The translations under genes and the position numbers were made by a program. A DNA stretch of 64,000 nucleotides from Planctomycetota bacterium (GTDB lineage Bacteria > Planctomycetota > Phycisphaerae > Phycisphaerales > Phycisphaeraceae), in NCBI GenBank assembly GCA_039193915.1, contig JBCCWH010000001.1, positions 7,668 through 71,667 of the forward strand, read 5' to 3'. Below, piece by piece: positions 10,292 to 60,664 of this stretch. How positions within the stretch are numbered: the stretch's first letter is position 1; every line of letters begins with the position of its first letter. The notes beneath the pieces were generated by a model. That model was given only the letters and a program-made list of their open reading frames with translations. It made no database searches and had not been told where the DNA came from.

Positions 10292-11596
10292 ATGTCACGA
10301 AAAGTCACTATCACGGGCGTCGGCCCGGTCTGCGGTTTAGGGCTGGGCATCGGCGATGTCTGGCAGGGTCTGATGGAAGGCCGGGGCACCCTGGGGCCGG
10401 TCCAGGCCTTCGACGCCAGCCACATGGACAGCGCGATCGCGGCCGAGGTCCCCGCGTTCAAGATGCGCGACTTCGTGCCCAAGAGCTATCGCAAGCAGAC
10501 CAAGGTGATGGCGCGGGATATCGAGATCGCCGTCGCCGCCGCCCACCTCGCCGGTCTCGACGCCGGGCTCACCACGCACGGCTACGACCCGGACGCCGAG
10601 CCGAGCTACGACCCGACCCGCGTAGGCTGCCACATCGGGGCCGGGCTCATCGCCGCCGACCTCGACGAGCTTACCCTCGCGCTCAACGAGTCACGCAAAG
10701 ACGACGGCAGCTTCGACATCCACCACTGGGGCGAAGAGGGCATGCGCAACCTCACGCCGCTTTGGCTGCTCAAGTACCTGCCCAACATGCTCGCCTGCCA
10801 CGTGACGATCATCCACGACGTGCAGGGGCCCAGCAACACGATCACCTGCGCCGAGGCGTCGGGCGGGCTGAGCTTCGGCGAGTCGCTCCGCGTCATCCAG
10901 CGCGGCGACGCCGACCTCTGCTTCTGCGGCGGCGCGGAAAGCAAGATCAACCCCATGACCTTCTACCGACAGGTCCTGACGGGCAGGCTGACGACGAACA
11001 ACGACAACCCCGGCGAGGCGGTCCGCCCGTTCGATACCGGCGCAAACGGCACGGCCGTGGGCGAAGGCGGGGGCATCCTCACCCTCGAAGCCACCGACAC
11101 CTACACCCAGCGCGGCGGCACCAGCGCCTACGCCCACGTCCTCGGCTTCGGCGCGAGCCAGTCCGTCAACCGCGAAACCCGCTCGCTCGAACCCACCGCC
11201 GAAGGGCGGGGGCCACGTCTTGCGGTCGAGGCGGCGTTGCGTGAAGCGGGCATCAACGCCGACCAGATCGACGTCGTCTTCCCGTTTGGCTGCGGCCACC
11301 CGCGCTACGACGCCGCCGAGGCCGCAGCACTGAAAACCGTCCTCGGCGATCGGCTCGCCGACGTCCCCGTCTACTCCGCCAAGTCGATGATCGGCAACTG
11401 CGGCGCCGGCGCAGGCGCGATCGACCTCGCCCTCGCCGCCCAAGCGCTCAAGACACAGACGCTCCCCCCCATGGTCAACCGCAACGCACCGCTTGATGGG
11501 CTAAGCGCAACACAAGCCAAGCAACTCGACCACGCCCTCGTCGTCACCACCGGCTTCGGCGGACAGAACACAGCGGTCGTGCTGGGGAAGGCGTAA
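10292..11596 (+). CDS. Beta-ketoacyl synthase homolog lacking the catalytic triad (chain-length-factor-like)
   Basis: KS-fold motifs (VTITGVG, RPFD, GEGGG, TGFGGQN). TCAEAS, FGCGH and KSMIGN replace TACAAS, HGTGT and KSMLGH. Confidence 0.85.
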   Translation: MSRKVTITGVGPVCGLGLGIGDVWQGLMEGRGTLGPVQAFDASHMDSAIAAEVPAFKMRDFVPKSYRKQTKVMARDIEIAVAAAHLAGLDAGLTTHGYDPDAEPSYDPTRVGCHIGAGLIAADLDELTLALNESRKDDGSFDIHHWGEEGMRNLTPLWLLKYLPNMLACHVTIIHDVQGPSNTITCAEASGGLSFGESLRVIQRGDADLCFCGGAESKINPMTFYRQVLTGRLTTNNDNPGEAVRPFDTGANGTAVGEGGGILTLEATDTYTQRGGTSAYAHVLGFGASQSVNRETRSLEPTAEGRGPRLAVEAALREAGINADQIDVVFPFGCGHPRYDAAEAAALKTVLGDRLADVPVYSAKSMIGNCGAGAGAIDLALAAQALKTQTLPPMVNRNAPLDGLSATQAKQLDHALVVTTGFGGQNTAVVLGKA

Positions 11597-16257: not shown

Positions 16258-18576
16258 TTAGTGCTGCCCACCTTCAAAGTAGGTGTCCCACATCGGGATG
16301 ACTTCGACCGGGCCGAGGATGCCGTCGGGCAGGGGAAGGTCGGGGTTGTAGCGGATGTGGATCAGGCCCAGCCCGTTGGTCGGGATCTCGGCTTCCATAT
16401 CGCCCTGCGCCGCGGAGAAGTAACCCAGCGTCGTGTTGAACTGTGGCGAGGTGTCGCCCAGCACCGGGCCGGTGTTGCGCTGCGGGTTGAAGGTTGTCAG
16501 CAGCGAGCCATTGATCTCCACTTGCCCACGCATATCGATCAGACCCGCGACGATCGTGCCGGTCAGCTCGATCTTCTCTTGGCCATCGTGCGGCGCGAGG
16601 AACGTGCCCATCTCGACCGAGTACTGCGGCAGCAGCATCGACGACCGCTGGAACAGTAGCTTCTCACCCGCGCTCAGTTCGGTCGAGTCCTCGATATCAA
16701 AGTGGGTCTGGCCGGTGAAGGTCACCTTGTTGCGTGTGTGCGTGTATTCCTCGGCGACATCGCTCACGAGCGCCCCTTCGAACGTGCAGTCGTCGAACCG
16801 CACGTTGTTCGAGATCGTCTTCGTGTCATAGACCTGCACGCCGCCGATCTCGACGAAGCGGTCGGGGTGCTTCTGGTCGCCCGAGGCGTCCTGCATCCCG
16901 GCGTAGTTGTAGTCCTGGCCGGTGTTCGCCGTCTCGGTCTCGACAAAGGTCACGCCGATGAATCGGCAGTTGATGAACAGCGCGTTGGTCCCCTTCGGGA
17001 TCGTCACATTGCGGAACGTCATGTTCTCGTAGACCGGGCGGTCGTAGTAGTCATACGGGTACGCCGAGCCGAAGGGCACCTCTTCGTTGCGGGTCGCGCC
17101 CAATGGCTGAGGCGTGGACGGGTCGCTGGGGTCATGGTTCGCCGCCTCGGCCACAGCCTGCGCGGCGAAGTCGCCCGTCGCCATCGCGCGGAAGGAGTCC
17201 ACGCTGAACTGGCTGGGGTCCAGGTCGTACTGGTCGTTCTCGGTCGAGTCGAACGTCACGGGCGTCTCGTTATGCCCCGGCACGATCGGCCCCTGCAGGT
17301 AGTCCTGATACGCGCCGTTGGCCGCGCCGTCGTTCCAGCCCGCCGCGTCGGTCGAGATCTGGATCTCGCCGCGGATCTTCGCGTAGCGGTCGAAGTCGTC
17401 GATCAAGCCGTCGCCGTAGCCCGCGCGGCCCGGATCGCCGAACGTATCAATCAGCTCCAGCAACTGGGCCGCCGCGAGCGGTGTCATCACGGCCTCAAGC
17501 TCGCTCTGCGAGATCTGACCGGGACTCGAACTGGTATCGAAGTGCGCTAAGAAAAAGTCGTATTCGTCGATGTAGCCATCGTTGTTGATGTCGTACGTCT
17601 CGGGGTTCGTGTAGTCGGCCACCTCGGTGGAGTTGTAGATGCTCAGGCGGTTGTCGCCGTTCTGGTCATCCGCGATGATCGAACCCATCAGTGCGTCAAG
17701 CTGCGCGTCCAGCGCGTCGTCGAGCCCGCGGAAGTCGGACATGACCTGGATCGGATGGCCGTTGATCAGGTCCGTATCCTCAAAGACCGTGCCGACACGG
17801 CCTTCGATCATGACGTTCTGACCGATCATGACCCGGCTGCGTGAGAGCACGGCGTAGTTGATCCGGCGGGTGATCTGGAAGTCCATCGAAATCGATCGGT
17901 AGACACGGTTGCCCACCGCGCCGTCGTATGCCGTGACGGTCACGCGCACAAAGCGCGCGTCGAGCGGCGTCGTCGAGCTGACCCCCATGTCGCCGTAGGG
18001 CGGCCGGGCGTAGTAGTCGCTGTCATAATCCTCACCCGCGATGGGGTGTGGCGTGAATGTCGCGGTGAAGGAAGGCTCGTTGGGGCCGACCGCGATCGGG
18101 CCGACGTGTACCACGCCGTCCGAATCGATGTACGGCTCCTGCTGATTGTGGAACTCACCGCCCAGCGACGTCACGAGGACGTCCGCGACCTCGTCCCAGA
18201 TCGCGTCGGCGTGGCCCAGCAGCACGTTGGTCGGCATCCCGGTCGTGTCGCCCGACAGGTCGGACGTGGTCAGCGTCGAGATGTACGACGAGTCGGCCGG
18301 GTCGTAGATCGCGCCCGAACGGGTGTAGACCACCGAAGCCGCATCGGCCAGGCGGTAGATCATCAGCCGCATGCCCGTCTCGGACGCGGCCTGCGAGCGG
18401 TTAACTTTGATGTGTGTGTCGGCGGTGTGCAGGTTGCCCTGCGACACGATCGCCATCGCCGCGGCGAGCGAACCGAAGATCACCAGGAACATCATCGCCA
18501 GCAACGCCGCCGCCCCGCGCTCACGCAAAGCCATGTGCGATGTCCGATGTGCGATGTCCGTTCGATTCCGTTTCAT
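16258..18576 (-). CDS. Large PilX/GspK-like protein with Ca-binding-type loops
   Basis: RERG|AAALLAMMFLVIF (no Glu5); DQNGDNRL, DINNDGYIDEYD, DGLIDDFD; GGAG RBS before ATG 18576 (alternative start 18534). Confidence 0.8.
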   Translation of the reverse strand: MKRNRTDIAHRTSHMALRERGAAALLAMMFLVIFGSLAAAMAIVSQGNLHTADTHIKVNRSQAASETGMRLMIYRLADAASVVYTRSGAIYDPADSSYISTLTTSDLSGDTTGMPTNVLLGHADAIWDEVADVLVTSLGGEFHNQQEPYIDSDGVVHVGPIAVGPNEPSFTATFTPHPIAGEDYDSDYYARPPYGDMGVSSTTPLDARFVRVTVTAYDGAVGNRVYRSISMDFQITRRINYAVLSRSRVMIGQNVMIEGRVGTVFEDTDLINGHPIQVMSDFRGLDDALDAQLDALMGSIIADDQNGDNRLSIYNSTEVADYTNPETYDINNDGYIDEYDFFLAHFDTSSSPGQISQSELEAVMTPLAAAQLLELIDTFGDPGRAGYGDGLIDDFDRYAKIRGEIQISTDAAGWNDGAANGAYQDYLQGPIVPGHNETPVTFDSTENDQYDLDPSQFSVDSFRAMATGDFAAQAVAEAANHDPSDPSTPQPLGATRNEEVPFGSAYPYDYYDRPVYENMTFRNVTIPKGTNALFINCRFIGVTFVETETANTGQDYNYAGMQDASGDQKHPDRFVEIGGVQVYDTKTISNNVRFDDCTFEGALVSDVAEEYTHTRNKVTFTGQTHFDIEDSTELSAGEKLLFQRSSMLLPQYSVEMGTFLAPHDGQEKIELTGTIVAGLIDMRGQVEINGSLLTTFNPQRNTGPVLGDTSPQFNTTLGYFSAAQGDMEAEIPTNGLGLIHIRYNPDLPLPDGILGPVEVIPMWDTYFEGGQH

Positions 18577-57642: not shown

Positions 57643-58836
57643 ATGCCCAAGCGCGACCCCTACGCCCCGTCCCCCGATGACCGCTTCACCTTCGGGCTCT
57701 GGACCGTCGGCAACCCCGGGGCCGACCCCTTCGGCGGGCCCACTCGCCCACGGCTCTCGCCCGCCGAGACCGTCGACCTGCTCGGCGAAGTCGGCGGCGA
57801 TTCAAGGGGGGTCTACGGCGTCAACTTCCACGACAACGACCTCATCCCCATCGACGCCACCGACGCCGAAGCCGCGCAGATTAAACGCGACTTCCGCGCC
57901 GCGCTACGCCGCAACAAGCTCAAGGTCCCGATGGCGACGACCAATCTGTTCAGCGACCCCGTCTTCAAGGACGGCGCGTTCACCAGCAACGACGCCGAGG
58001 TCCGCGCCTACGCGATCCAAAAAACGATGAAGGCCATGCTGCTGGGCAAGGAGTTCGGCGCGAAGACCTACGTCTTCTGGGGCGGCCGGGAGGGCACCGA
58101 GTCCGACGCGACCAAAGACCCCGTCGTCGCCGTCAAACGGTTCCGGGAATGTATCAACTACCTCTGCGCCTTCAGCAAGGCCGAGAAGCTGAACTACAAG
58201 TTCGCCTTCGAGGCCAAGCCCAACGAGCCGCGCGGCCACATCTACATGGCCACGACCGGCAACTACCTCGCCTTCATCGAGACCCTCGACGACCCATCGA
58301 TGTGCGGCGTGAACCCCGAGTTCGCGCATGAAACGATGGCCGGGCTCAACTTCGTCCACCACGTCGCACAGGCCCTGGAAGCCGGCAAGCTCTTCCACAT
58401 CGACCTCAACGACCAGGAGATAGGCCGGTACGATCAGGACTACCGCTTCGCATCCGTCAGCTACAAGGCCGCGTTCTTCCTATGCAAGCTGCTGTGCGAC
58501 TACAAGTACAAGGGCATGAAGCACTTCGACAGCCACGCCTACCGGCAGGCCGACCGCGACGAGGTCAAGGCCTTCGCCGCCGGGTCGATGCGCTCGTGGA
58601 AGATCCTCGAGGCCAAGGTCACGAAGTTCAACAAGGACCGCAAGATCCAGTCCCTGATCCGCCAGATCAACCGCGGCGAGCAAGCCGCCGCCACGAAGCT
58701 CGCAAAGAAGTACAGCAAGACCAACGCCAAGAAACTCCTGGCCGCCCCACTCGACCGCGAGAAACTCGCCAAGCGCAAACTGCCATACGAGCAGTTGGAT
58801 CAACTAACGATGGAACTGCTGCTAGGCGTGCGGTGA
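57643..58836 (+). CDS. xylA: Xylose isomerase (short, class I)
   Basis: FTFGLWTVG, FHDNDL, FKDGAFT, WGGREG, EAKPNEPRG, VNPEFAHE, GKLFHIDLN. Confidence 0.96.
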   Translation: MPKRDPYAPSPDDRFTFGLWTVGNPGADPFGGPTRPRLSPAETVDLLGEVGGDSRGVYGVNFHDNDLIPIDATDAEAAQIKRDFRAALRRNKLKVPMATTNLFSDPVFKDGAFTSNDAEVRAYAIQKTMKAMLLGKEFGAKTYVFWGGREGTESDATKDPVVAVKRFRECINYLCAFSKAEKLNYKFAFEAKPNEPRGHIYMATTGNYLAFIETLDDPSMCGVNPEFAHETMAGLNFVHHVAQALEAGKLFHIDLNDQEIGRYDQDYRFASVSYKAAFFLCKLLCDYKYKGMKHFDSHAYRQADRDEVKAFAAGSMRSWKILEAKVTKFNKDRKIQSLIRQINRGEQAAATKLAKKYSKTNAKKLLAAPLDREKLAKRKLPYEQLDQLTMELLLGVR

Positions 58837-58843
58837 GGGGACG

Positions 58844-58916
58844 TTAGCGGTTAGCCATTCGCTTTTAGCTGATTGCTGAGTGCTGAGTGCTGAGTGCTGA
58901 TTGCTGATTGCTGATT
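58844..58916. repeat. 7-mer tandem array after the xylA stop
   Basis: ttagcgg/ttagcca/ttcgctt/ttagctg/attgctg/(agtgctg)x3/(attgctg)x2. Confidence 0.9.
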
Positions 58917-59062
58917 CCCCCCCAAGCCGTACCTGAGCGCAGCGAAGGTGCGGACCCTCCCACTTCTCCCCCATCCCGGGAATAAACCCCACCCCCCGCC
59001 GGTTCCACAGGCGGGACGCTATCGTGTGGGGGTTGTCAGCCCACTACGCCACGGAGCCCACC

Positions 59063-60511
59063 ATGACGCGCCCAACCTACTCCGCCCTCCTCCTGCTCGT
59101 GTGCCTGCTGATGACCGTCGCCACCCCCACACCCGCCACCGCCGGCCCCGCGCAGACCGCCGTGGGCGAGCCCTTCCCCGACCTCGTCTTCCCCACCGTC
59201 GATGGCGAACAGACCGTCCGGCTGTCGGACCACCGGGGCAAACGCGTCCTCCTCATCGAGTTCGCCTCCTGGTGAGCGGGCTGCCGAGCACGCACGCCCG
59301 GGTGGCGTGACATGACCCAGCCGTTGATCGAGTCGGGCGACCTTGTCGTCCTCGGTTTAGTTCAAGAGCAACACCCCGAACGCGCCCAGCTCTACGCCCA
59401 GTGGCAGCAGCTCGACTGGCCCATCCTCTGGGACCCGTTCAACACCACCGGTGCCACGGCCGTCCCCAACGCCTACCTCATCGACGAGCACGGCGTCCTG
59501 CAGGGCAAACGGCTGAACGCAGAATCGCTCGCGGCGTTTATGGAGGCGGAGTTTGAGACGCCAGAGTCTGATGTACAAACTAGTCCACTCAAGGAACAGC
59601 TTTGGCAAACCCCTGACGTGTCCGAAGAGGCACTGCGATGGGATCCTAAGCTTTCCGTAGAGATAGCCTACTGGCTGTCACTTAGCAATGCGATATGGGT
59701 TCGCAACGAACATGAAGCCGTCGATCATCTCGGCGGGATGTTTGGGCTGGGCGAAGGCGCTCCAGCCATGATCCCGGATGGGGATGACTACTTCCGCCTA
59801 GGCGTCGCCTACCGCATGCGATACGACTCCGACGGTCGCCAGCCCGGAGATTTTCAGGCCGCCATCGACGCGTGGGAACGCGCCTTGGAGATGGCCCCCA
59901 ACCAATACATCTGGCGTCGCCGCATCCAGCAGTACGGCCCAATGAGCGACAAGCCCTACCCGTTCTATGGCTGGGTCGCCACCGCGCAGCGCGAGATCAC
60001 CGAGCGCGTCGAAACGCCAATCGAAATCCCGCAGGCGCTGACACAGGCGGAGCTCGGCACCGAAGGCTCCGCGTTCGTGCCTGAGGGCGAGCCGGCCAAC
60101 CCCGACCCCGACGCGCGCATCACCACCGACGCCGGCATCGTGACGATCACCAGCGCGACCACGCCCGACACCCAAAATCCAGGCACCCGGCGTGTCCTGA
60201 TCGAGTTCATCCCCGGAAGCACGGGCCATTGGAACAACGAGGCCGAGCCATTGACGGTATGGATTGACGCGGAATCCCTGCCCGAGGGCTGGTCAGTCGA
60301 GTCGCCGATGCTCATCCACCAGCCCGGCGACGACATCGCCGCCAGCTCCGACGAACCCCGCATCATCGACTTCGGCCTCACCCACCCGGCCGACGCGGCG
60401 GGCACGTTCACCCTCACCGGCTACGCGCTCTACAACGTCTGCGAAGCCGACGGCCTCGGGCAATGCCTTTACCGTCGGCAGGCCTTCGAGGTCGTGGTCG
60501 AGTTGGAGTGA
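59063..60511 (+). CDS. Probable selenoprotein: exported TlpA/AhpC-like thioredoxin fold (UxxC) + TPR + C-terminal Cys-pair domain
   Basis: ORFs 59024-59275 and 59312-60511 share one frame; the TGA at 59273 reads VLLIEFASW-U-AGC; downstream WPILWDP..AVPNAYLIDEHG completes the fold. Confidence 0.85.
59276..59309 (+). other. Candidate bacterial SECIS hairpin
   Basis: cacgcc-CGGGT-ggcgtg stem-loop; the loop begins 23 nt after the UGA and has G at position 2. Confidence 0.6.
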
Positions 60512-60518
60512 GAACGAA

Positions 60519-60664
60519 GGGCAGGCACCCTGCTTGTCGGTCGTGGAGCTACCTGAATCCGAAGCCCACAGATTGCATCTGTGGGCCACCCAGCCATGCA
60601 ATGGCTGGGCTTCTTGTGGCGGATTGTTCAGATTGCCCCACGACCGACAGGAATGCCTGCCCCA
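60519..60664. repeat. Nested REP-like element
   Basis: Outer gggcaggca..tgtcggtcgtgg / ccacgaccgaca..tgcctgccc; inner cccacagattgcatctgtggg and cccagccatgcaatggctggg hairpins. Confidence 0.72.

Follow-up and report, generated by a model that had tools for sequence, protein, structure and literature searches.

This study concerns a reading frame, interrupted by a single in-frame TGA, within a stretch of 64,000 nucleotides (the window). The locus raises the question of whether the TGA ends a gene or is read as selenocysteine (Sec) inside a longer one, and what the longer product would do. A first-pass annotation, made without database searches, had proposed an exported Sec redoxin with its own relay domain. 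The coordinates of the features are summarized in Table 1.

Table 1. Features of the predicted selenoprotein gene and its flanks, in window positions
Feature	Position	Strand	Basis and remarks
GGAG motif, candidate ribosome-binding site	59053..59056	+	6 nt ahead of ATG; sequence only
Whole gene, 482 codons plus stop	59063..60511	+	One in-frame TGA; sequence and read-through translation
Predicted signal peptide, residues 1-27, ending A-T-A	59063..59143	+	By eye; hydrophobic stretch in 104 of the 115 loci with enough upstream frame; pLDDT <50 for residues 1-19
Thioredoxin-fold domain, ResA/TlpA/DsbE type, about residues 34-161	59162..59545	+	Pfam, fold search, conservation
In-frame TGA, predicted Sec71, first position of UxxC	59273..59275	+	TGA in 120/123 loci, Cys in 0
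Cys74, second position of UxxC	59282..59284	+	Cys in 120/120 TGA loci (TGC 88, TGT 32)
Predicted SECIS hairpin within the coding frame; stem of 6 bp, GG tip closed by a C-G pair, bulged U	59293..59309	+	Covariation; consensus fit
Hypervariable linker and helices, residues 161-240	59543..59782	+	GC3 0.55; elsewhere in the gene 0.86-0.87
TPR helices and the family's most conserved segment (PNQYIWRRRIQQYGP...KPYPFY, residues 279-304)	59780..60004	+	Conservation, model, Pfam, structure search
C-terminal Ig-like beta-sandwich, residues 340-482	60080..60508	+	Model (pLDDT 95.5, domain alone); fold and profile searches
Cys460-x7-Cys468 pair on the last hairpin	60440..60466	+	x6 in most homologs
Terminator-like hairpin downstream of the gene	60589..60609	+	Consensus scan only

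Gene structure and annotation

The frame begins with ATG at 59063 and closes with TGA at 60509-60511; the internal TGA (59273-59275) is codon 71. The codons at the site are TTC GCC TCC TGG TGA GCG GGC TGC, which give the peptide IEFASW-U-AGC when TGA is taken as U. In the ORF list made with the standard code the same frame is broken into 59024-59275 and 59312-60511. The first-pass annotation had joined these two ORFs, placed the TGA at the first Cys of the F-A-S-W-C-x-x-C site and expected that pipelines would split the gene. The read-through translation of 482 residues agrees with the first two points, and the databases agree with the third: among the best 120 protein matches, 117 align to 80-85% of the query, the portion that follows the TGA; of the other three, one is a fragment of 50% and two span the full length. 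An NCBI record 67% identical to the window protein (P0008) is stored as a 408-residue ‘hypothetical protein’. A search with residues 25-110 yielded no annotated read-through form among 106 candidates, but was insensitive and missed the homolog P0019 as well. Judged from the sequences, the two pieces very likely make up one selenoprotein, which the databases divide.

The family is large. At E<=1e-10, 1837 of 7998 scored database proteins were matched, and 31 of 300 sampled genomes of the phylum (about one in ten) carry the gene. The correction of split selenoprotein genes is established practice (bioRxiv 2022.07.06.499078); here it concerns members whose database records, named ‘TPR’ or ‘hypothetical’, lack the catalytic head. 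The congener G002 has an orthologue with TGA in the same gene neighbourhood. Clustering of neighbours gave no conserved partner gene or operon, the best cluster comprising 7 of 48 long loci. In four of these loci (L095, L108, L122 and L133; upstream in L133) a neighbouring AhpC/TSA-like ORF begins just past its expected active site and is possibly another TGA-split selenoprotein.

Two small observations concern the DNA itself. About seven tandem 7-nt units (GCTGAGT/GCTGATT, 58869-58917) lie between the xylose isomerase gene (57643-58836) and the selenoprotein gene. At 60009 the window has T and a contig of sequencing run X1 has G, which changes Val to Gly316, the family consensus; this difference is a strain variant or an assembly error.

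Conservation of the TGA codon

The site was compared in 123 homologous loci, which come from genomes and metagenomes and include the copy in the window. A script found TGA at this column in 120 of them; one more was recognized by eye at a contig edge, and two are cut. Two of the searches that collected loci used queries lacking the site, so they did not select for TGA, while one of the three patterns of one locus search included C460, so that the 80 loci from it are biased toward keeping that residue. Three further regions were seen, two with TGA and the third a partial second copy in which no site was seen. The first-pass annotation had named a lack of Sec machinery together with TGC or TGT in all close homologs as the sign of a nonsense mutation or sequencing error; as to the second half, no Cys codon was found at the column in any of the 123 loci.

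Behind the TGA, Gly+2, Cys+3 and Arg+4 are invariant in all 120 TGA loci, with synonymous variation in the Gly and Cys codons, and 86 of these loci lack an in-frame ATG within the next 39 codons. The codons past the TGA therefore appear to be translated, and the UGA occupies a redox-Cys column with coding constraint on either side. Twenty homologs cover the site and have no TGA; one of these is of the Cys type (P0019, CxxS) and none has CxxC. Distant ResA/TlpA folds carry CxxC.

SECIS element

The hairpin noted after the TGA in the first-pass annotation (CACGCC-CGGGT-GGCGTG, -8.5 kcal/mol) has a 6-bp stem and a 5-nt loop that begins 23 nt past the TGA. These values lie within the bacterial SECIS model as given in PMC13188914 (loop of 3-9 nt with G in its two initial positions, stem of 4-16 bp, spacing of 16-37 nt, MFE <= -7.5). 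The folding energy of the 61-nt region was not above chance (z = -0.72), and the minimum-energy structure there differs from the hairpin. The SECIS assignment is thus made because of covariation, not folding energy. Sites 27 and 30 are synonymous, being third bases, one in a Pro codon and one in the codon that follows, and both can vary freely. They form Watson-Crick pairs in 114 of 115 distinct sequences, as four pair types (C-G 68, G-C 40, A-T 5, T-A 1), where shuffles gave a mean of 54.7 and a maximum of 74. Third positions taken as a control pair are complementary in 51 of 91. In 41 rows derived from genomes, 98.3% of cells are paired, with two-sided changes at five of seven pairs; slid controls gave 27-55%. 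The amino acid changes of the window gene, V-P..W-H to T-P..W-R, are compensatory within the stem. The counts come from related sequences and are not independent, though the four pair types recur nonetheless. The earlier suggestion of a SECIS-like hairpin is borne out by these compensatory changes and by the fit to the model.

Selenocysteine machinery and decoding of the TGA

The first-pass annotation had called for a search for selA, selB, selC and selD. In the window's own assembly (87.7% complete, 150 contigs) selA, selB, selD and tRNA-Sec were not found above cut-off. This is the chief finding against a Sec reading and the half of the annotation's refuting condition that came true. Other carriers of the gene do have sel genes, and unlinked sel contigs occur at matching depth in run X1. 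The three full-length carriers among 60 relatives (G002, G039 and G053) all have selA and tRNA-Sec, against a background of selA in 12 of 61; so do, as regards selA, all ten genomes behind loci L044-L053. In the phylum sample, selA is present in 30 of 31 carriers and 187 of 269 non-carriers (Fisher p=5e-4, overstated by kinship), and the 31st carrier, without selA, bears selB at the end of a contig. G039 and G053 have the gene and tRNA-Sec about 1.2 kb apart, beside selA. Overall, selA was found in 217 of 300 genomes of the phylum versus 12 of 61 in the order of the window organism.

The sel genes of congeners are packed into a single block of about 9 kb (selD-ABC transporter-selB-selA-selC), so that one gap removes all of them. 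The ABC transporter amid these genes (G002 L036:11290-19620; L041-L043) is a candidate selenium importer.

Of the words sampled from the window, 94% occur in run X1. Its contigs cover parts of the G002 sel block at a depth of 10.4-12.5 and 84-87% identity, one of them bridging the selB-selA junction; orthologous DNA of the own assembly and G002 is 74-90% identical, and the X1 contigs that match the window (0-1 differences) have a depth of 9.1-12.6. The sel contigs are short (375-1755 bp) and unlinked to the bin, and a second relative occurs in the run at a depth of about 5.5. Among the window-matching contigs listed, the one nearest to the TGA starts at 59293, with the TGA codon outside. The missing cluster was not located by synteny, and no fragment of it was seen at contig ends of the own assembly. 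The own genome also contains six more genes with in-frame TGA, two of which score above curated selenoprotein cut-offs with the TGA at the Sec site (NF041383, 350.9 vs 275; TIGR02174, 53.4 vs 34.2). Genome-wide TGA scans are noisy (242 and 41 candidates) and the real-looking genes were chosen by eye, so the list is a minimum. Because of these six genes and the X1 contigs of matching depth, the absence of sel genes from the own assembly is likely a binning gap.

Given TGA in 120 of 123 loci, coding constraint across it, a co-varying SECIS and the co-occurrence with Sec machinery in other carriers, codon 71 very likely encodes Sec, as the first-pass annotation had it. The best surviving alternative is that the lineage of the window has just lost its Sec machinery and that the gene here is a silent relic ending at FASW in a family that is otherwise still a selenoprotein. 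The missing sel genes and the absence of selA from 10 of 14 congeners would agree with such a loss; it is nonetheless improbable, given seven TGA genes with open frames in the own genome (among them a DsbD with TGA versus Cys in the 30 relatives examined), the sel contigs of run X1, and a sel cluster in the congener G002, which shares the gene. Still less room is left for a real stop or an error, be it a nonsense mutation, a sequencing error or a pair of genes in which a TPR protein restarts downstream of a short thioredoxin N-fragment: public gene callers do produce exactly this split, yet the same TGA recurs across the phylum and beyond, the residues right after it are invariant while a restart ATG is not conserved, the SECIS co-varies and the predicted fold runs unbroken across the site. 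A suppressor tRNA or variant code that inserts Cys or Trp, which the lack of tRNA-Sec in the own assembly would suit, can be dismissed just as firmly, since TGA also terminates the same gene, the standard tRNA scan gave no tRNA with UCA anticodon (a relaxed scan gave many low-score UCA candidates, which are not trusted), carriers track selA and the hairpin matches the SECIS model.

Domain structure of the read-through protein

An AlphaFold model of the read-through protein (pLDDT 89.7, pTM 0.89) begins with a thioredoxin fold, continues through helices and ends in a beta-sandwich. The signal peptide of the first-pass annotation is upheld by inspection and by the hydrophobic stretch in the homologs (Table 1), and to judge from these sequences the protein is very probably exported.

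Pfam matches extend across the TGA (residues 34-150; AhpC-TSA 42.4 bits vs a cut-off of 26, Redoxin 33.9 vs 26.6) and place the N-terminal domain in the AhpC-TSA/Redoxin thioredoxin-fold family. Its fold matches 4grf with Z 12.4 (rmsd 1.8, 129 residues aligned), and the V134-P135 loop and a QEQH motif are kept. A peroxiredoxin was considered and rejected: the active-site motif of that group is PxxxTxxC(U) (PMC3322552, PMC13188914), the site here is FASW-U-AGC, and PRK09437 scored 21.5 vs 140.

Residues 161-240 are 8-34% identical to nine close relatives that are elsewhere 64-100% identical, and differ even between relatives of 70% identity. Recent replacement or diversifying selection of this helical cassette is possible. 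The TPR-like segment reported earlier was recovered: TPR stays below the Pfam cut-off in the window protein itself, yet TPR_2 is found at E<=0.05 in 90 of 119 aligned members, and sequence searches of solved structures returned TPR proteins only, or nothing.

The C-terminal pair YNVCEADGLGQCLY is present as first described and corresponds to C460 and C468; both are Cys in 118 of 119 aligned proteins, and in 94 of 95 of a second alignment. In the modelled structure they lie on the last hairpin of an Ig-like fold, as in DsbD-alpha (PF11412). The fold search gave generic Ig-like domains, the top match being the Ig domain of a glycosidase (9fyo, Z 9.4), with SOQ1 (7djl) fifth (Z 7.8) and DsbD-alpha (1jpe) 31st (Z 6.8). 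On 95 members, Pfam found DsbD_N on six (best E 0.0088) and NPCBM_assoc on 22; an Atlas lead (0.88) has DsbD_N on 11% of members. A profile of the domain matched 28 DsbD N-terminal domains of relatives at E=0.0027 (score 24.9, 117 columns, probability 11; 12 controls <=15.1), and the C-terminal domains of thioredoxin-NHL proteins with the motif CCINC at E=1.3e-4 (score 32.5, probability 54, a remote match; 10 controls <=18.5), with the cysteines aligned in both cases. The CCINC set comprised the last 135 residues of 13 proteins, five of them confirmed as thioredoxin plus NHL and two without the domain but still included; DsbD-alpha scored 22.0 against the same set. A profile search for the domain gave 622 proteins, and the 150 matches listed were unannotated, with no link to DsbD. 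The earlier label ‘DsbD-alpha-like relay domain’ has moderate support, from the profile match with aligned cysteines; the fold search is not specific and the thioredoxin-NHL domains match better. The domain thus resembles DsbD-alpha weakly, and the C-terminal domain of the SOQ1/NHLRC2 type somewhat better.

Loss of the nucleophile and of the cysteine pair

The 20 homologs without TGA include 19 that have lost the nucleophile, with Ser, Asn or Asp in its place. Twelve of these have lost both C-terminal cysteines and one the second only, and six have no C-terminal domain in the record; the sole Cys71 homolog keeps both. In a quick tree the nucleophile label changes three times, all within one subclade of 22 rows, so the losses are not fully independent; Sec-bearing members of that subclade keep the pair. 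Three loci keep Sec without the pair (L189, L190 and L195); Tyr in place of C460 was found three times, in one sequence. A coupling of the two domains is supported by the near-universal pair and by its loss alongside the nucleophile. The full-length paralogs P0073 and P0270-P0287 have SxxC, SxxS, NxxC or DxxS, have lost the C-terminal cysteines and have kept the fold; by their sequences they are apparently a catalytically dead pseudo-enzyme branch, and such natural variants could be used as controls.

Comparison with known families

The chemistry of UxxC in a thioredoxin fold is well known, and UxxC redoxins are among the 119 known or predicted selenoprotein families of PMC13188914. Two predicted families in Table 1 of that paper, ‘Prx-like thiol:disulfide oxidoreductase’ (PF00578) and ‘Redoxin family protein’ (PF08534), have the Pfam domains, UxxC and a SECIS right after the UGA in common with the window protein, which adds TPR helices and an Ig-like domain with a Cys pair. 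The words ‘TPR’ and ‘tetratricopeptide’ are absent from the main text. The three-part architecture was found neither in the family table of PMC13188914 nor in literature searches, and term searches in the main texts of deep-Sep (PMC12013277) and BSepDB (PMC13326102) gave no matches; the genome list of BSepDB includes Planctomycetota, and members may be filed there under a generic redoxin name.

In the fold search the N-terminal domain comes closest to the periplasmic reductases ResA, TlpA, DsbE and CcmG (Z 10-12.4), which also have a signal peptide. The window protein differs from them in having U for C and two extra domains, and scores far below the NCBIfam equivalog cut-offs (ResA 34 vs 170, TlpA 31 vs 230). 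The best NCBIfam match is another ResA-like Sec protein, the ‘ResA-like WAxxUGC motif’ selenoprotein NF041054, at 56 bits versus a cut-off of 300; the window protein has W-U-A-G-C, with Sec first, and no UGC motif.

The order thioredoxin fold, repeat scaffold and Ig-like domain with Cys pair is that of SOQ1 (plant thylakoid lumen), human NHLRC2 and bacterial CCINC thioredoxin-NHL proteins. SOQ1 acts outside the compartment equivalent to the cytoplasm, and the window protein is predicted to be exported. It differs in having UxxC, encoded with Sec, in place of the CCINC motif of that family (PMC6107167), helical TPR in place of the NHL beta-propeller, and neither a HAD domain nor a membrane anchor. 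DsbD has the same two domain types (the thioredoxin domain cDsbD, which passes electrons to the Ig-like nDsbD), with cysteines that align in the profile; the window protein is soluble, with no transmembrane domain and the reverse domain order. What is new here is the SOQ1-type link and the co-loss of nucleophile and Cys pair.

Proposed relay and its main alternative

Taken as a whole, the reading of one gene with Sec at the TGA, whose exported product is a self-contained reducing relay, is judged probable. Its internal step, from Sec to the Cys pair, is slightly favoured on the strength of sequence patterns and analogy. SelB would read the hairpin, Sec would be inserted at codon 71 and the signal peptide would direct the protein to the periplasm. 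There the U71-C74 site would be reduced by a membrane electron carrier, probably the separate full DsbD that the own genome encodes; DsbD is named by analogy with the DsbD/ScsB-TlpA pathways (PMC3322552). Sec71 would then reduce the C460-C468 disulfide, as the thioredoxin domain of SOQ1 does with its C-terminal domain (CTD) and cDsbD with nDsbD, and the reduced pair, or Sec71 itself, may repair oxidised envelope proteins gripped by the TPR and variable helices. The precedent is SOQ1, with its thioredoxin domain, NHL propeller and structurally nDsbD-like C-terminal domain with Cys pair (bioRxiv 2021.03.16.435614), for which electron transfer in vitro from the thioredoxin domain to the CTD and methionine sulfoxide reductase activity are reported (bioRxiv 2024.11.01.621559). 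Against the relay counts that the domains of NHLRC2 show no stable association (PMC6107167). Complex prediction for the thioredoxin and C-terminal domains of the homolog P0019 scored 0.00, which is given no weight either way.

A less probable but serious alternative is a genuine exported selenoprotein that is an ordinary TlpA/ResA-like reductase. Sec71 would act on outside substrates directly, and the Ig-like domain would be an accessory for binding, its C460-C468 disulfide being structural. Exported proteins often have disulfides in hairpins, the fold matches of the domain are generic, NPCBM_assoc is found on more members than DsbD_N, and the three loci that keep Sec without the pair fit this alternative too. 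A structural disulfide should, however, outlast the catalytic residue, and the pair is lost wholly or partly in 13 of 13 full-length nucleophile-less homologs; moreover, in the profile alignments the two cysteines fall on the redox pairs of DsbD-alpha and of thioredoxin-NHL proteins.

If the relay exists, it would offer a small soluble bacterial model for the thioredoxin-to-Ig-domain relay proposed for SOQ1 and NHLRC2, the biochemical function of the latter being described as undetermined (bioRxiv 2024.11.01.621559). A wider reading, which is speculative and rather doubtful, takes the family for a bacterial equivalent of the SOQ1/NHLRC2 relay, widespread and almost Sec-only: a periplasmic enzyme would use its Sec to regenerate its DsbD-alpha-like domain, and that domain, possibly a non-Msr reductase of methionine sulfoxide or disulfides, would serve clients picked by the fast-evolving helical cassette. 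Were this true, the enzyme would in this lineage belong to an envelope chain based largely on selenium (Sec-DsbD, Sec-redoxins, Sec-MsrA-like fusion), and the family, without a CxxC twin, would be largely invisible to gene finders that rely on Cys/Sec pairs.

Other TGA-containing genes of the genome

Six of the seven TGA genes found in the own genome (G000) are envelope-directed by look. The DsbD gene (G000:C47:10091-12094, minus strand, TGA at 10360; L034, P0122) encodes W-U-L-T-C within its periplasmic thioredoxin domain and has a hairpin of 8 bp tipped by GGUC. The site is Cys in all 30 relatives examined (29 loci and G021), Sec users among them, which suggests, as far as sequences can tell, a recent gain of Sec from Cys. 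In G021, a genome without selA, the search gave one TGA inside a DsbD match (C266:9859-11070); after realignment the Cys site was intact and the aligned part free of stops. The selenoprotein gene of the window points to selenium use in the bacterial envelope, with a DsbD apparently Sec-bearing only recently.

A protein with FG-GAP repeats, a signal peptide and a W-U-C motif (G000:C37:17318-18517, minus strand, TGA at 18208; L202) keeps its TGA in G001, G002 and G005, all with selA. It has no NCBIfam match, ‘FG-GAP’ is absent from the text of deep-Sep (PMC12013277), and the protein is possibly an undescribed selenoprotein family. L201 (G000:C4:82598-83764, plus strand) is a member of the VPGUxxT type-2 family (NF041383) with TGA at 82865 and 83213, the second within an MsrA-like F-U-FWEG motif, and with a signal peptide by eye. 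The remaining genes encode an AhpC/TSA-like lipoprotein with W-U-P-F-C (G000:C50:17000-17662, minus strand; TGA common to G002), an HMA-domain protein with signal peptide and GMT-U-GGSC (G000:C3:69015-69365, plus strand) and a SelW/Rdx protein with C-G-M-U (G000:C144:2433-2663, minus strand). At the end of another contig (G000:C28:93-2610) eleven tRNA genes lie within 2.6 kb, which is typical of a tRNA array on a mobile element.
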